From a virus (Duplodnaviria > Heunggongvirae > Uroviricota > Caudoviricetes): DNA of 4,069 nt. The notes beneath the pieces were generated by a model. It made no database searches, was not told the DNA's origin, and saw only the letters and a list, made by a program, of their open reading frames with translations. Of the stretch, positions 1-4,069 are shown in pieces. The translations under genes and the position numbers were made by a program. Where the stretch lies: IMG/VR virus record IMGVR_UViG_2548876869_000006, positions 1 to 4,069 of that record, one strand, 5' to 3'. How positions within the stretch are numbered: the stretch's first letter is position 1; each line of letters begins with the position of its first letter.

Positions 1-1
1 T

Positions 2-139
2 GACCTTGATGCGTGTGATGCTGATATTTCTGCATGGGAACCGGAACGACCAGAGGGCAATGGATGGTTTATTGGTTCAATACATGACACCGAAGATGGC
101 CCGGTTTGTGTATGGCTGAGAAATAAGGCCGAAGCATAA
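2..139 (+). CDS. 3' end of an unidentified upstream gene (5'-truncated by window); C-terminus ...DLDACDADISAWEPERPEGNGWFIGSIHDTEDGPVCVWLRNKAEA*
   Basis: Frame 2 is open from the window edge to TAA at 137..139; GC content and codon use resemble the neighbouring genes. No family recognised. Confidence 0.45.
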   Translation, partial: DLDACDADISAWEPERPEGNGWFIGSIHDTEDGPVCVWLRNKAEA

Positions 140-238
140 AGGCTATAAACCGACTAACAACTAAATACTGAAGATTTAAATCAGAAACGATTTTTATTAA
201 ATCCTTAACCGGAGGGATTCCTGCACCCTCAGAACATC

Positions 239-267
239 AGGAGGCCGTCCGAAAGGGCGGTAGTGAA
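239..267 (+). promoter_or_regulatory. Translation initiation region: consensus Shine-Dalgarno AGGAGG (239..244), then a GAAA-tetraloop hairpin CCGTCC-GAAA-GGGCGG (245..260), then 7 nt to the ATG at 268
   Basis: Read directly. The SD is 23 nt from the ATG in linear sequence but about 7 nt if the 6-bp hairpin (one G-U pair) forms. No other in-frame start exists back to the stop at 169..171. Confidence 0.4.
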
Positions 268-450
268 ATGCGAAAATTCAAAATAATTATTGAAACGGGA
301 ATAGCCGGTGGAGATTTCGAGGATGAATTCGAAGTGGATGATGATGCAACACCAGATGAAATACAGGATGAAGCTAAAGATATTTTCTTTAACTACTGCA
401 ATTACTCATACCACGAAATAAAAGACGAAGAGGAAGAACAAAATGGCTGA
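268..450 (+). CDS. Small highly acidic protein, 60 aa (about 20 Asp/Glu versus 5 Lys/Arg); function unknown
   Basis: ORF in track; ATG 268, TGA 448..450; stop overlaps the start of the next ORF (ATG 443), suggesting translational coupling. Confidence 0.6.
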   Translation: MRKFKIIIETGIAGGDFEDEFEVDDDATPDEIQDEAKDIFFNYCNYSYHEIKDEEEEQNG

Positions 451-619
451 TTTTGGTTCAACTAAATACAACGTCAGTTTTGAAGCATGGCATGAACTGT
501 TAATGGACTATGCAGAGTTACGTGGTGGCAGTGCTGCTGATGCTGAAGCATGGCGTGATGATTATGAAGCAGGAAAAACTCCGGTCGAAGCATATTGTGA
601 TGAGTGGGGCGATGAATGA
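443..619 (+). CDS. Small acidic protein, 58 aa (MADFGSTKYNVSFEAWHELLMDYAELRGGSAADAEAWRDDYEAGKTPVEAYCDEWGDE); not in the ORF track
   Basis: Hand translation: ATG 443..445 with GAGG at 430..433 (9-nt spacer); open to TGA 617..619, which overlaps ATG 616 of the next gene (ATGA). It exactly fills the gap between two coupled genes. About 15 acidic versus 4 basic residues. Confidence 0.55.
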   Translation: MADFGSTKYNVSFEAWHELLMDYAELRGGSAADAEAWRDDYEAGKTPVEAYCDEWGDE

Positions 620-1131
620 GCGAGATTAATTATCAGGAAGGGCATGAAACGGCAGGGCAGGCAAAAACAGTGGCATGGCGATATCGCTACGTGAAAAAAG
701 ACGTTACAGACTTTCAGGGGAAGCCGTGGGCTGGTGACTGGAAATATGTACCGACAAAAGAGGATTGTAACGACAGGCCGAACTATGAAATTCAGGCCTT
801 ATTCATCGGCCCGCCAGTCCCGGTGACATCAGAAGGACTGGTTAAAGCCGTGCGCTTTTATGAACAGGTAAAGCGTGAGAATCCGCCAGTCGAAACAGGA
901 GCATGGAAGGATGCTGTTGACTGGGTGCTCAGAGAGGCCTGCTGCGCTGCCATTCTGGGTAAAGCCGACAATCCACCAGCATCCGGCAATCAGGTTAGCG
1001 AATTAACAATGTGGGTTAAACGACTGGTCAGTCAACTGAAAAAAGCTCAGCCGGACTGCAAATTACCGGAGAAGGCGATGGATTACCTGAAACGAAATGG
1101 ACTGATAAGCGTGGAGGATGTTTTACGATGA
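616..1131 (+). CDS. Hypothetical phage protein, 171 aa, no family recognised
   Basis: ORF in track; ATG 616 overlaps the upstream stop (ATGA); GGGG at 606..609 as SD; ordinary enterobacterial codon use; stop TGA 1129..1131. Confidence 0.75.
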   Translation: MSEINYQEGHETAGQAKTVAWRYRYVKKDVTDFQGKPWAGDWKYVPTKEDCNDRPNYEIQALFIGPPVPVTSEGLVKAVRFYEQVKRENPPVETGAWKDAVDWVLREACCAAILGKADNPPASGNQVSELTMWVKRLVSQLKKAQPDCKLPEKAMDYLKRNGLISVEDVLR

Positions 1132-1251
1132 ATATTTAGACTAAAGAGTTTGTAACGCTATGTAAGTGATTTTTTCTGGTTTAGATATTTATATGTCCGG
1201 CCAAATTGAGGTGTGTTTAAATGTTATTGCACATTGATTGTAGGGGGAATA

Positions 1252-1431
1252 ATGAAAAACGCATTGCAGTTTTTGTTTGTTGCGTTCTGGTTGTTCGCAT
1301 CATGTATGCCCATCATCTTCACAGCAAGGTATATGGAAAAAATTGATGTTTTGATATTAATGTTTGGACATATAAATGCCCTTTTTTTAGGGGTGTTCAT
1401 GGCGGTCATGTGCATTGAATACTGGCGGTAA
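1252..1431 (+). CDS. Small hydrophobic membrane micro-protein, ~59 aa, two predicted transmembrane helices, encoded in an AT-rich insert
   Basis: Track ORF 1213..1431 begins at a GTG with no usable SD; the internal ATG 1252 follows AGGGGG (1242..1247). Product MKNALQFLFVAFWLFASCMPIIFTARYMEKIDVLILMFGHINALFLGVFMAVMCIEYWR has two ~20-residue hydrophobic stretches. The preceding 120 nt are about 33% GC by hand count versus roughly 50% elsewhere. Confidence 0.45.
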   Translation: MKNALQFLFVAFWLFASCMPIIFTARYMEKIDVLILMFGHINALFLGVFMAVMCIEYWR

Positions 1432-1485
1432 ATACAGCGAACGCCATTGGTTTAGTTGGATATTTACTGTGCCGGACAAAAACGG

Positions 1486-1514
1486 TTTGCGGGGAAATCT
1501 TAGTTAAGTAGAAT
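1486..1514 (+). promoter_or_regulatory. Candidate sigma70 promoter for hok mRNA (-35 TTTGCG/TTGCGG, -10 TAGAAT 1509..1514; predicted start near G1521)
   Basis: Hexamers read directly with 16-17 nt spacing. The predicted 5' end (GGGUGCUUGAGGCU...) resembles my recollection of the plasmid R1 hok mRNA 5' end; that comparison is from memory. Confidence 0.4.
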
Positions 1515-1531
1515 AACTGCGGGTGCTTGAG
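1515..1531 (+). promoter_or_regulatory. hok mRNA 5' element (tac-like) complementary to the 3' fbi-like element at 1896..1913
   Basis: AACTGCGGGTGCTTGAG (1515..1531) pairs with CTCAACGCACCCGCACTT (1896..1913): 15 of 17 positions with one bulge. Long-range 5'-3' pairing is a known hallmark of hok-family mRNAs. Confidence 0.5.
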
Positions 1532-1574
1532 GCTATCTGTCTCAGGCATGAACACCAAAAGGCAGATAGAGAAA

Positions 1575-1640
1575 AGCCCCAGTTAACATTACGCGTCCTG
1601 CAAGACGCTTAACATTAATCTGAGGCCATATCTATGCGAC
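1575..1640 (-). ncRNA. sok: Sok-like antisense RNA (predicted), covering the SD and start codon of the mok-like leader ORF
   Basis: Placed by the minus-strand promoter at 1647..1676 (start near 1640) and by the known antisense architecture of hok/sok loci. The 3' end is not defined; I could not identify a clean terminator on the minus strand. Confidence 0.4.
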
Positions 1641-1693
1641 ACATAGAGATTAGCCTCTTACGGACCGAAAGGTCAAGGAGAAGCAGGCTATGA
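1634..1693 (+). CDS. mok-like leader ORF, 19 codons (MRHIEISLLRTERSRRSRL), stop overlapping the hok start (ATGA)
   Basis: ATG 1634 with GAGG at 1622..1625 (8-nt spacer); TGA 1691..1693 overlaps hok ATG 1690..1692. It sits about 56 nt upstream of hok, where I recall mok starting in R1 hok/sok. Confidence 0.4.
   Translation: MRHIEISLLRTERSRRSRL
1647..1676 (-). promoter_or_regulatory. Candidate sok promoter on the minus strand (-35 TTGACC = complement of 1671..1676; -10 TAATCT = complement of 1647..1652; 18-nt spacer)
   Basis: Hexamers read from the reverse complement. The position inside the mok-like/hok leader and pointing antisense matches the known placement of the sok promoter in hok/sok loci. 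Confidence 0.45.
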
Positions 1694-1845
1694 AGCAGCA
1701 AAAGGCGATGTTAATCGCCCTGATCGTCATCTGTTTAACCGTCATAGTGACGGCACTGGTAACGAGGAAAGACCTCTGCGAGGTACGAATCCGAACCGGC
1801 CAGACGGAGGTCGCTGTCTTCACAGCTTACGAACCTGAGGAGTAA
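1690..1845 (+). CDS. hokD: Hok-family type I toxin, 51 aa (MKQQKAMLIALIVICLTVIVTALVTRKDLCEVRIRTGQTEVAVFTAYEPEE); HokD/RelF-like
   Basis: Hand translation; below the ORF-track size cut-off. Single N-terminal transmembrane helix, conserved Cys and C-terminal tail typical of Hok/Gef. It matches my recollection of E. coli HokD (RelF), and the hok-rem-DUF968 order matches Qin prophage. The paralogue assignment is from memory. Confidence 0.85.
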   Translation: MKQQKAMLIALIVICLTVIVTALVTRKDLCEVRIRTGQTEVAVFTAYEPEE

Positions 1846-1852
1846 GAGACCC

Positions 1853-1874
1853 GGCGAGGGAGAAATCCCTCGCC
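1853..1874 (+). other. Perfect 9-bp stem with GAAA tetraloop (GGCGAGGGA-GAAA-TCCCTCGCC) in the hok 3' UTR
   Basis: Read directly; lies 8 nt after the hok stop and upstream of the fbi-like element and terminator. Plausibly a structural element of the hok mRNA 3' end. Confidence 0.5.
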
Positions 1875-1895
1875 ACCTCTGATGTGGCAGGCATT

Positions 1896-1913
1896 CTCAA
1901 CGCACCCGCACTT
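1896..1913 (+). promoter_or_regulatory. hok mRNA 3' fbi-like element, complementary to the mRNA 5' end (1515..1531)
   Basis: See the 1515..1531 entry; the complementarity is read directly from the sequence. Confidence 0.5.
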
Positions 1914-1945
1914 AACCCGCTTCGGCGGGTTTTTGTTTTTATTTT
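1914..1945 (+). terminator. Rho-independent terminator of the hok transcript
   Basis: Stem AACCCGC (1914..1920), loop TTCG, stem GCGGGTT (1925..1931), followed by TTTTGTTTTTATTTT. Confidence 0.75.
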
Positions 1946-1953
1946 CAACGCAT

Positions 1954-1983
1954 TTGAAGTTCTGGACGGTGCCGGAATAGAAT
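1954..1983 (+). promoter_or_regulatory. Candidate sigma70 promoter upstream of rem-like (-35 TTGAAG 1954..1959, 18-nt spacer, -10 TAGAAT 1978..1983)
   Basis: Hexamers read directly, just downstream of the hok terminator. Sequence-only prediction. Confidence 0.3.
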
Positions 1984-2061
1984 CAAAAATACTTAAGTAG
2001 CGCGCAGGGATAAGAGGGATGGTCCCTTAAAGGGGAGAGCTAATTATCCGGAAGGATTCTG

Positions 2062-2313
2062 ATGATGAACATCGAAGAACTGCGTAAAATTTTTTGTGAA
2101 GATGGCCTCTATGCTGTGTGCGTTGAAAATGGAAATATTGTTAGTCATTACCGCATTGTGTGTTTGCAAAAAAATGGGGCTGCGTTAATTAATTTTGTGG
2201 ATGCCCGAGTGACGGACGGATTTATCTTGCGCGACGGTGAGTTTGTCACTTCATTACAGGTATTGAAAGAGATCGGAATAAAAGCTGGCTTTTCTGCTTT
2301 TTCAGAAGAATAA
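2062..2313 (+). CDS. rem: Rem-like small prophage protein, 83 aa, function unknown
   Basis: ORF in track; AGGA at 2053..2056 as SD; stop TAA 2311..2313. The 83-aa length and position directly after hok match my recollection of rem in Qin prophage (from memory). Confidence 0.7.
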   Translation: MMNIEELRKIFCEDGLYAVCVENGNIVSHYRIVCLQKNGAALINFVDARVTDGFILRDGEFVTSLQVLKEIGIKAGFSAFSEE

Positions 2314-2379
2314 ACTCATCTACAATCTTGCGCGGGGCTGAACTCCCGCTGAGTAACACCGTGCCACCGGAGAAAACCG

Positions 2380-2658
2380 ATGGCACGCAACGCAAAATAT
2401 TACAAACATGATAATTCGACCGTTCTTGCCCACACGCACGAGCGGTATTCTCACGCATTTAAGTCAGACTGGTACCAGCATCCCCCATGCACTGAAGAAC
2501 AGGCCGAATGGCTCATTCAGTGTTACCGCAGGCGCGGATGCGAGGTTAAAAAAGCCCTTAGCCTCGACTACCGTCACTGGATAATCTCCGTCAGGCTTCC
2601 TTACTCCGAACGCCCACCGCGTCTGTCCCGCACATTCCAGCAACGCATCTGGAGGTAA
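2380..2658 (+). CDS. Hypothetical small basic protein, 92 aa, His/Cys-containing (possible metal-binding), Arg-rich C-terminus
   Basis: ORF in track; GGAG at 2369..2372 with 7-nt spacer to ATG 2380; stop TAA 2656..2658 lies 1 nt before the GTG start of the next gene. Confidence 0.6.
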   Translation: MARNAKYYKHDNSTVLAHTHERYSHAFKSDWYQHPPCTEEQAEWLIQCYRRRGCEVKKALSLDYRHWIISVRLPYSERPPRLSRTFQQRIWR

Positions 2659-2659
2659 C

Positions 2660-3715
2660 GTGCGGGTATTACTTCGACCTGTTCTGGTACCGGAACTCGG
2701 GCTGGTGATCGTTAAGCCGGGCCGTGAATCCATGCCGGTATTCCACAATACCCGGGTACTGGTGGAGCCGGAACCGAAAAGCATGCGTAATCTGCCGTCC
2801 GGGGTCGTTCCTGCCGTTCGCCAGCCGCTGGTGGAAGACAAAACATTGCTGCCGTTTTTCAGTAACGCACGGGTGATTCGTGCTGCTGGTGGTGCTGGTG
2901 CATTGTCTGACTGGCTGTTGCGCCATATTAAATCCTGCCAGTGGCCACACGGCGATTATCATCACAGCGAAACCGTCATTCACCGTTATGGTACCGGCGC
3001 AATGGTGTTGTGCTGGCACTGCGACAACCAGCTGCGTGACCAGACATCCGAATCACTCGGGCAACTTGCTCACCAAAACCTGTCTGCATGGATGATTGAC
3101 GTCATACGCCATGCAATGAATGGCTCGCAGGAACGGGAATTATCGCTGGCTGAATTATCCTGGTGGGCGGTCCGCAATCAGGTGGCGGACGCGCTACCGG
3201 AAGCGGTATTACGTCGTTCGCTGGGGTTGCGTGCGGAAAAAATCCGCTCAATGTACCGTGAAAGCGACATCGTACCGGGAGAGCAGACCGCCACCAGCAT
3301 ACTGAAGCAGCGCACAAAAAATCTTGCGCCGCTGCCTCACGCCCACCAGCAAAACCCGCCACAGGAAAAGACGGTGGTCAGCATTGCCGTTGATCCGGAG
3401 TCACCGGCTCAGTATCTCCAGCGCCAGAAATCACAACGGGAAGAGATGCCTGTATACACGCGCTGGGTAAAAACGCAGAAATGCATGACGTGTGGCAATC
3501 AGGCAGATGATCCGCATCACATCATTGGTCATGGACTGGGAGGGATGGGAACAAAGGCTGATGATTTGTTTGTTATTCCGCTGTGCCGTAAATGCCATAG
3601 CGAACTACACGCCGGGGTAAAAGATTTTGAAGAAAAACACGGCAGCCAGCTGTTGTTGCTGATTCGTTTTTTAATGCACGCGAGAAATTCGGGTGTTCTG
3701 AAGTGGAAAGCATAA
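2660..3715 (+). CDS. ydfU: DUF968-family prophage protein (YdfU-like), 351 aa, with a C-terminal HNH-type zinc-finger nuclease motif
   Basis: ORF in track; GTG start 2660 preceded by GGAGG (2651..2655); frame 2 has a stop at 2582..2584 and no earlier start. C-terminus (about 3482..3610) reads C-x2-C ... HH ... C-x2-C-H-x3-H, a recognisable HNH/zinc-ribbon signature. Family assignment from memory. Confidence 0.8.
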   Translation: MRVLLRPVLVPELGLVIVKPGRESMPVFHNTRVLVEPEPKSMRNLPSGVVPAVRQPLVEDKTLLPFFSNARVIRAAGGAGALSDWLLRHIKSCQWPHGDYHHSETVIHRYGTGAMVLCWHCDNQLRDQTSESLGQLAHQNLSAWMIDVIRHAMNGSQERELSLAELSWWAVRNQVADALPEAVLRRSLGLRAEKIRSMYRESDIVPGEQTATSILKQRTKNLAPLPHAHQQNPPQEKTVVSIAVDPESPAQYLQRQKSQREEMPVYTRWVKTQKCMTCGNQADDPHHIIGHGLGGMGTKADDLFVIPLCRKCHSELHAGVKDFEEKHGSQLLLLIRFLMHARNSGVLKWKA

Positions 3716-4069
3716 ATGACCGAGCGCATAGAATTTGTTTTACCTTACCCGCCGACGGTGAACACTTACTGGCGACGCCGTGGCAGCACATATTTTATCT
3801 CGGAGGAGGGAAAGCGTTATCGCCGGGCTGTGGCGCTTATTGTTCGCCAGCAGCGGCTGAAATTAAGCCTGTCCGGAAGGCTGGCGATAAAGGTGATTGC
3901 AGAGCCACCGGATAAGCGTCGTCGCGACCTGGACAATATCCTGAAAGCACCGCTGGATGCGCTGACGCATGCGGGAGTGTTAATGGACGATGAGCAGTTT
4001 GATGAAATCAATATCGTTCGTGGTCAGCCAGTATCTGGTGGACGTATGGGGGTGAAGATTTACCCCATA
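3716..4069 (+). CDS. rusA: RusA-family Holliday-junction resolvase, N-terminal 118 codons (3'-truncated by window)
   Basis: Hand translation from ATG 3716, directly after the DUF968 stop (TAAATG), with no stop to the window end: MTERIEFVLPYPPTVNTYWRRRGSTYFISEEGKRYRRAVALIVRQQRLKLSLSGRLAIKVIAEPPDKRRRDLDNILKAPLDALTHAGVLMDDEQFDEINIVRGQPVSGGRMGVKIYPI. The acidic DKRRRDLDN block and the later Asp-rich stretch match what I recall of the RusA catalytic signature. Absent from the ORF track because it has no stop. Confidence 0.8.
   Translation, partial: MTERIEFVLPYPPTVNTYWRRRGSTYFISEEGKRYRRAVALIVRQQRLKLSLSGRLAIKVIAEPPDKRRRDLDNILKAPLDALTHAGVLMDDEQFDEINIVRGQPVSGGRMGVKIYPI

Follow-up and report, generated by a model that had tools for sequence, protein, structure and literature searches.

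Between the last ordinary early-right gene and the hok/sok-type locus of a Rac/Qin-type lambdoid prophage of Escherichia coli, comparison with related loci indicates a replaceable cassette of ~340 bp (positions ~1132 to 1473) in an exchangeable cargo slot, and the open reading frame (ORF) that it carries at 1252..1431 on the plus strand is very probably a genuine protein-coding gene for a 59-amino-acid (aa) membrane protein (MKNALQFLFVAFWLFASCMPIIFTARYMEKIDVLILMFGHINALFLGVFMAVMCIEYWR). All positions refer to the window, that is, the whole stretch of 4,069 nucleotides analysed here (IMG/VR virus record IMGVR_UViG_2548876869_000006, positions 1 to 4,069), which belongs to the region from the replication genes to Q. 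The case is made from constraint on the coding frame across two diverged branches of the family, the membrane character of the product, the replaceability of the cassette and a tight linkage to hok in both branches, all of which emerge from sequence comparison. The whole explanation, in which the gene would encode an integral inner-membrane protein that serves the prophage as an accessory membrane effector, appears to us probable but well short of secure.

The ORF runs from ATG 1252 to TAA 1429-1431 (59 codons) and is preceded, 4 nt before its start, by the Shine-Dalgarno (SD) sequence AGGGGG (1242..1247, plus strand). Because an ATG-initiated ORF of at least 59 aa also arises in 7.4% of shuffles of 1132-1500, its length is not significant, and the case for a gene rests on the comparison with a distant homologue. 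An exhaustive HMMER (phmmer) run over 1.84 billion representative proteins and a two-seed profile search revealed a second branch in E. coli (P0037/P0042) that is likewise exactly 59 aa long and shares 44% protein identity with the window protein. The DNA of the two branches is 59-60% identical and aligns without gaps from ATG to TAA, with start and stop shared and different codons at 14 of the 26 conserved residues. Between them, the proportion of synonymous differences (pS, 0.70-0.72) exceeds that of non-synonymous differences (pN, 0.33-0.34), giving a pN/pS of 0.46 (bootstrap 95% interval 0.31-0.71) and a ratio of non-synonymous to synonymous substitution rates (dN/dS) of 0.23. This contrast vanishes when the same alignment is read frame-shifted, and the other five frames have stops in one or both branches, so that none is open in both. 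When neutral evolution was simulated 20,000 times with as many changes of the same spectrum as observed, 0.4% of runs preserved the open frame together with its start and stop, 0.18% reached a protein identity of at least 44% and 0.32% had a pN/pS as low. The GC content at third codon positions (GC3) lies above GC1 and GC2, the periodicity expected for a coding sequence.

Copies retrieved from IMG/VR by DNA pattern alone (queried with the 32 invariant nt at the start of the ORF, without using the protein for selection) keep the frame intact in 114 of 117 cases, and together with the 44%-identical homologue of the same length they bear out the coding frame on which our first-pass annotation of this DNA had staked its candidate. 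Variation at the SD among alleles keeps or improves it, with A in place of G1245 in 5 of 24 aligned sequences (the window and 23 unique alleles) yielding the canonical AGGAGG. We also considered the longer start at GTG 1213 (72 aa) of some GenBank records and rejected it, as the extension is not conserved in the second branch, whose frame upstream of the Met reads SQGLT. Inside the ORF, a T7 run at 1381-1387 (codons 44-46) marks the point at which frameshifted 55-aa database variants (P0020, P0021, P0023 and P0025) diverge, which could be due to slippage or homopolymer sequencing errors.

Window-type cassettes (at least 80% query coverage, 95.7-100% identity) are present in 1,551 of 5,426 complete E. 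coli genomes, and the second branch is found at no less than 99% identity in ~1,043 of the same 5,426, including LF82, ATCC 25922 and ST131, carriers that we take to belong to phylogroup B2; some genomes, e.g., NZ_OZ369329.1, have both copies. The second branch belongs to the remnant of a decayed prophage at the Rac attachment site (ttcA-uspF), in the order ttcA, integrase fragment, DUF1627 fragment, ORF, hok fragment of 62 nt, frameshifted permease gene and uspF. Its flanking genes in this B2 remnant (L089 3392-4619; NZ_CP070063.1) are fragmentary or frameshifted and the ORF is intact in P0042, a form found on at least 1,000 contigs, which could speak for selective retention or could reflect a small mutational target. 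Within the databases searched, the family is known from E. coli and Shigella only: no other records carry it in the contig search, and the phmmer and two-seed profile searches returned the two E. coli/Shigella branches and truncated fragments, with no third branch. The Qin and Rac prophages of K-12 have no copy (best tblastn E = 0.09), and the gene therefore has neither a K-12 gene name nor a ribosome-profiling record. The interval is unannotated in every RefSeq record inspected, a few GenBank/JGI entries list a hypothetical protein that in some cases starts at a GTG lying 13 codons further upstream, and our literature search found no published description of the 59-aa ORF or its slot.

Hydropathy places hydrophobic segments at around residues 4-25 and 33-55 (GRAVY 1.20), and the AlphaFold2 (AF2) model has a helix at residues 2-27, a turn and a second helix at 30-58 with a mean pLDDT of 77. 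Both agree with the first-pass description of a product of ~59 aa, started at ATG 1252 behind AGGGGG and made almost entirely of two hydrophobic helices. Residues conserved in both branches (W13, S17-C18-x-P20-I-I-x-T24, L36-x-F38-G39-x-x-N42-A43-L44-x-x-G47 and E56-x-W58-R59) appear to be of the kind that mediates helix packing; His40 is common to the window and the B2 branch and replaced by Tyr in some close alleles. We propose that the protein would form an N-in/C-in helical hairpin in the inner membrane, its short loop on the periplasmic side, the simplest topology given that N-terminal positive charges are found only at residues 2-3 (K2, or R2-K3 in the other branch), which would face the cytoplasm. 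There, it may act within the membrane via the residues conserved across branches, either by packing on a host membrane protein or by self-association.

Compatible with a real gene is the proposal, unlikely in our eyes yet worth weighing, that the protein starts with a lipoprotein signal peptide (MKNALQFLFVAFWLFAS, the first hydrophobic stretch) that signal peptidase II removes ahead of C18, which would leave a lipidated protein of 42 aa anchored in the inner membrane by one C-terminal helix in N-out/C-in orientation. The S17-C18 pair is invariant, and both branches satisfy a PROSITE-PS51257-type rule at Cys18 (K/R among the first seven residues, an uncharged h-region and [AGS]-C) that 1.4-1.7% of shuffles of residues 2-25 also satisfy. 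The N-terminal K/R, the hydrophobic stretch and the S-C at 17-18 are thus shared with lipobox proteins such as Rz1, Cor and Llp, the latter two being phage exclusion proteins that are lipoproteins, and the B2-type branch even has a classical lipobox, V-I-S-C. However, the FASC of the window, with F at position -3, fails the strict pattern [LVI][ASTVI][GAS]C, and the seven residues after the Cys (MPIIFTA) are, unlike in lipobox proteins, hydrophobic and strongly conserved, more typical of a continuing transmembrane helix. AF2 likewise gives one continuous helix from 2 to 27, the lipoprotein-site models of Pfam are unmatched, and the second transmembrane helix would hold the 59-aa product in the inner membrane.

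That the gene lies on exchangeable DNA is seen in two relatives (L094 and L095) that share the 171-aa ORF and hokD with the window and have only 290 nt between them, compared with 558 nt in the window. In the alignment, the 342 nt from the upstream stop to ~1473 are swapped for ~70 nt of different sequence in L094/L095. The replacing ~70 nt encode a one-helix peptide of 27 aa (MTWPEAFTTAGIAMAVAMVVYSICRWG; consensus M[TNSI]WPEA...[IV]CRWG; in L092, L094 at 2529-2612, and L095) whose ATG shares nucleotides with the stop codon of the 171-aa ORF before it (ATGA) and whose allele differences are mainly synonymous; it is unannotated in the RefSeq records inspected and has no family-model match. Reading the window sequence, we recognise a vestige of this gene in the codons ATG AAT ATT TAG at 1128..1139 (plus strand), a coupled start whose ATG still overlaps the upstream stop. 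Like the 59-aa protein, the 27-aa peptide is a small, hydrophobic and unannotated predicted membrane peptide at the same genomic position, but it has one helix instead of two and is translationally coupled by the ATGA overlap. A homology of helix 2 to the 27-aa peptide was considered and dropped as not significant (344 of 5,000 shuffles, and none for the second branch), and on sequence grounds we regard the two as alternatives, not homologues.

Other loci hold larger cargo at the same junction. In L093 (NZ_CP030939.1), a complete Septu pair at 380-2375 lies directly upstream of the hokD promoter (PtuA, E = 2e-165; PtuB, E = 1e-83), labelled by RefSeq only as "AAA family ATPase" and "HNH endonuclease", and flxA-ydfV-relBE of phage PhiR42_1 ends directly upstream of the hok-homologous segment, as it lies upstream of hokD in the Qin prophage of K-12. 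A second family of hydrophobic micro-peptides that end in LMDRL[SG][DN] (e.g., MSDDISLAMEGALAVIAVVGVYCLVVFLMDRLGN) is found immediately upstream of the hok promoter (L215, L226 and, at ~2420-2470, L093), and various larger genes fill the slot in further loci. One of these, a 228-aa ORF that ends 65 nt before the hok 5' motif in about ten sampled loci (L218, L222, L227, L228 and others), has the motif LLLHSCCAPCS, which may resemble that of QueH/DUF208. The picture was quantified in a survey of 120 hok loci sampled via the hok 5' motif among the matches listed, the figures of which are estimates: 19 of the 120 (16%) were loci already fetched by the ORF pattern, and the 96 new loci with enough flank included 33 with the 27-aa peptide, 16 with the LMDRL peptide and 6 with both. 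Finding the 27-aa peptide, Septu and relBE at identical flanks supports the earlier suggestion of an insert whose junction is occupied by different cargo in relatives, and we read ~1132-1473 as a replaceable cassette in an exchangeable slot on this basis.

The slot is anchored on its right by a hok/sok-type locus (1521..1935, plus strand) with a leader at 1521-1689, the hok coding sequence at 1690-1845 (PF01848) and a terminator at 1914-1931. The Rfam hok/sok leader model RF01794 matches 1521-1692 with 106.7 bits, 1514-1526 pairs with 1902-1914 in the 5'/3' fold-back of hok, whose mRNA has its 5' end at ~1521, a promoter-like TTTGCG-17-TAGAAT lies upstream at 1486-1514, and partial BLAST matches in thousands of genomes begin at window position 1474 or 1502. 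Together, the leader, fold-back, terminator, promoter and match starts argue that the hok unit is self-contained and that 1474-1500 belongs to it. The insert had first been drawn over 1132-1500, which stands for ~1132-1473 and fails for 1474-1500, a segment that is common to insert-free loci and holds the -35 element of hok. The conserved region outside the insert thus comprises 1474..1520 (plus strand; -35 TTTGCG at 1486-1491, -10 TAGAAT at 1509-1514). The ORF is tightly linked to this locus: in 110 of 117 copies, a constant 268-269 nt separates its ATG from the hok 5' motif, and the distant branch also lies directly upstream of hok, of which a fragment of 62 nt (L089 4285-4346, matching window 1758-1819) is left.

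The leader of hok in the window has an extra T near 1673 (GGTCAAGG), because of which the mok-like ORF from ATG 1634 has only 19 codons, its stop overlapping the start codon of hok (ATGA; 1634-1693). This arrangement recurs in 40 sampled loci, and the equivalent of ATG 1634 is in frame with hok in at least 95 others, giving a 70-aa reading annotated as "MokW" or "host killer protein". A sub-threshold Rfam match to isrK at 1854-1935 (26.6 bits, with the gathering score at 50) falls on the hok 3' fold-back and terminator and is probably just a terminator-like structure.

On its left, the cassette is bounded by the 171-aa ORF (616..1131, plus strand; phrog_660, function unassigned), the last ordinary early-right gene, whose TGA at 1129-1131 marks the edge and which is also present in the cassette-free L094 and L095. 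The window as a whole runs from small early ORFs through the 171-aa ORF, 1132-1500 and the hok locus to rem, a 92-aa ORF, a DUF968/YdfU gene and the first part of rusA. The same gene order, followed by Q and a lysis cassette, is found in a RefSeq chromosome with 100% identity over 1100-1560. The cassette itself consists of an AT-rich non-coding spacer (1132..1251, plus strand), the ORF and a 3' end (1432..1473, plus strand) without intrinsic terminator, after which homology to cassette-free loci resumes at ~1474. An imperfect direct repeat (1181-1205 and 1456-1480, 72% over 25 nt), the second copy of which spans the right edge, could be a recombination trace from installation of the cassette or a chance similarity.

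The drop in GC content after the stop at 1131, put at ~33% by an earlier hand count, measures 32.5% over 1141-1260 and 31.7% over the spacer (1132-1251), compared with 48.5% for the whole window. The foreign composition that had been attributed to the insert holds for this spacer of 120 nt and not for the ORF. The latter has 38% GC, with 0.34, 0.29 and 0.53 at codon positions 1, 2 and 3; its GC3 is normal and similar to that of neighbouring genes and the deficit falls on positions 1 and 2, so that its low GC is due to the amino-acid composition of the product, i.e., hydrophobic codons. The truly odd composition is limited to the 120-nt spacer.

No sigma-70 promoter with at least 9 of 12 consensus matches was found in 1132-1251, in a consensus scan that is blind to weak or non-sigma-70 promoters, and a transcript from the best relaxed match (8 of 12) would begin at the ATG itself. 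Nor was a terminator-like site found from 1431 to the hok promoter (fold of 1420-1520, z = -0.87). The gene is thus probably transcribed by read-through of the early-right operon, as suggested by the failure to detect a promoter and terminator of its own, and its product would then be made after induction or infection and not constitutively in the lysogen. Classical morons, as defined by Juhala and Hendrix, are extra DNA of divergent GC content with their own terminator and their own promoter active in the repressed prophage (PMC3594210). The cassette is indeed extra DNA that is absent at the same junction in relatives (L094, L095), and it diverges in GC through its spacer and, more mildly, its ORF, yet the GC3 of the latter is neighbour-like; neither its own promoter nor its own terminator was found in these scans, which places it outside the classical definition (PMC3594210).

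We also considered that the segment might work as an RNA element. A perfect inverted repeat of 12 nt (1187-1198/1366-1377; ATTTATATGTCC and GGACATATAAAT) pairs the spacer with codons 39-42 in the minimum-free-energy fold, and the three substitutions that alleles show in its arms (1191 A>G, 1197 C>T and 1369 C>T; mapped by hand) would all keep the pairing via G-U. We rejected this reading, as Rfam has no family in 1132-1500, neither strand gives a significant mRNA fold (z = -1.4, -1.5 and -0.2), nor does the homologous locus, and the 12-nt pairing is absent in the second branch.

As to function, the 59-aa protein would most likely serve as an accessory membrane effector against competing phages, acting by a block of DNA entry or by abortive membrane damage. 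We favour such an anti-phage role because the slot also holds Septu, RelBE and tiny membrane peptides and because of the precedent of HK97 gp15 (PMC3594210). By analogy, we regard a role in exclusion or defence as tentatively possible and a host-toxic or host-takeover peptide as somewhat unlikely, with the rest left to something else. The first-pass annotation had likewise proposed a candidate exclusion or toxic membrane peptide and, from the AT-richness, a possible silencing by H-NS, both of which stay conjectural.

The protein could also be a small membrane peptide that is toxic to the host, akin to type I or cryptic-prophage toxins, and that damages the membrane alongside Hok when the early operon is derepressed, a scenario that we consider unlikely. 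Type I toxins are typically shorter than 60 aa, often prophage-linked and usually have one transmembrane helix (PMC12648545). The very hydrophobic, prophage-encoded 59-aa protein resembles Hok/Gef and other type I toxins in these respects and adjoins a bona fide Hok toxin, with both branches of the ORF next to hok and an intact hok/sok in the window; repression of the operon in lysogens would make its toxicity tolerable. On the other side, it has two helices instead of the usual one (PMC12648545), and PF01848 (HOK_GEF) matches the neighbouring hok at 82.9 bits while the 59-aa protein matches neither this nor other toxin families and no Pfam family at E up to 0.1. Its similarity to Hok is not significant (217 of 5,000 shuffles). 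Type I toxins are further controlled by an antisense RNA or an SD-sequestering fold, and neither was detected for this gene: minus-strand promoter-like sites at the cassette reach only 8 of 12 matches, and the Rfam and fold analyses described above gave nothing that is significant or shared with the homologue. A more radical variant has the 59-aa protein working together with Hok, given that both branches lie directly upstream of hok; it is opposed by the ~84% of sampled hok loci without the ORF and by the B2 remnant, which keeps the ORF after hok was destroyed.

Several observations weigh against the explanation that we prefer, a 59-aa integral inner-membrane protein acting as accessory effector. 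Among 60 unique alleles of the module, variable sites are rarest in the ORF (5.0%); the spacer, where the cassette varies most, has 12.5%, hok 15% and the upstream ORF 39%. The changes in the ORF among close alleles are 0 synonymous and 9 non-synonymous, mostly conservative and in the C-terminal half, compared with 8 synonymous and 13 non-synonymous changes in hok of those loci. The close alleles thus give no sign of recent purifying selection, with events too few for a test, and the pattern looks like that of a young cassette, recently spread by recombination, under relaxed or diversifying selection. Only two branches are known and both come from one species, so that one deep comparison carries the whole estimate of constraint. 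For a role in lysogens, the gene would require a promoter, and none was found in the cassette. The invariant S17-C18 pair fits a lipobox, so that the first helix might be a cleaved signal peptide and not a permanent transmembrane segment. Finally, the profile libraries returned no match of the protein to any defence, toxin, holin or exclusion family: scans of both branches against Pfam, PHROG, NCBIfam and PADLOC gave nothing at or near threshold (PADLOC-DB 2.0: 0 families for either branch, with PtuA and PtuB of L093 recognised by the same search), the sole weak profile match was that of P0037 to DUF4212 (13.9 bits against a cutoff of 30), a PDB sequence-profile search had 0 matches, and the best Foldseek hits (E 0.7 in BFVD, 5.4 in PDB) are uninformative, non-specific helical-hairpin noise.

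That the segment is merely non-coding, i.e., AT-rich spacer, hok leader or promoter DNA with an ORF as by-product of its T-rich composition, we consider improbable. It would fit the frequency of equally long ORFs among shuffles, the missing calls in RefSeq, the lack of a synonymous excess among close alleles and the T-rich sense strand (negative AT skew), which favours hydrophobic codons. It is opposed by the indel-free deep homologue with its pN/pS of 0.46 at 59% DNA identity, which neutral runs reproduced in at most 0.4% of cases, and by the excess of GC3 over GC1 and GC2. Moreover, the hok unit starts at ~1521 and has unrelated upstream DNA in ~84% of sampled loci, from which it follows that hok does not need 1132-1473. 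The worry voiced in the first-pass annotation that the ORF might turn out to be leader or promoter DNA of hok is thereby put to rest.

A holin- or antiholin-like function in lysis timing is very improbable. Class II holins and pinholins have two transmembrane domains in N-in/C-in topology, and the 59-aa protein resembles them in size and in its two predicted helices, with an orientation inferred solely from K2 or R2-K3. Yet its gene is in the early region, ~5 kb upstream of a lysis cassette that has its own class II holin after Q (L001 11542-11757), its C-terminal tail consists of only four residues (EYWR) instead of a charged tail, and Pfam and PHROG gave no holin match. The weakest contender, which we give next to no credence, is that the real gene is the opposite-strand ORF at 1224-1415 (minus strand, 63 aa), which is open in the window and annotated in ON470612.1 (23105-23356), PV340562.1 (10959-11210) and NZ_CP148542.1 (6842-7027) as "hypothetical protein" or, once, "hornerin", calls that are wrong because this frame has two stops in the distant homologue, and which lacks family matches and has 7 of 8 allele substitution sites at its codon positions 1 or 2, not synonymous (hand mapping).

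In sum, the predicted 59-aa inner-membrane protein resembles several known families of small phage membrane proteins and, as far as sequence can tell, belongs to none of them. HK97 gp15 (YebO-like), P22 SieA and T4 Imm are likewise small, phage-encoded, predicted to reside in the inner membrane and variably present among close relatives (PMC3594210), and the recognised defence and toxin-antitoxin cargo in the same slot further likens the gene to those of moron exclusion proteins. The protein nevertheless has no sequence or profile similarity to HK97 gp15, SieA or Imm, and expression from the repressed prophage, a hallmark of HK97 gp15, is not supported for a gene without a detected promoter and terminator of its own. 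Going further, one might see in the slot upstream of the hok promoter of Rac/Qin-type prophages an undescribed cargo hotspot and in the 59-aa protein a new single-gene determinant of exclusion or abortive defence, possibly lipid-anchored, though we think this rather unlikely.

Small membrane proteins are routinely missed by annotation, and the 59-aa family is a case in point, being widespread yet unnamed, without a family and sometimes called on the wrong strand. Even without a phenotype, the finding amounts to an annotation correction for a very common prophage module, and it would gain value if an exclusion or defence phenotype or lipidation were demonstrated. The junction upstream of hok is a place to look for more prophage cargo, and its position in this slot makes the 59-aa protein a concrete candidate for a minimal phage-exclusion or membrane-toxic function. 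If the exclusion reading were true, up to ~45% of complete E. coli genomes would carry a determinant that is invisible to annotation and defence-finding pipelines.

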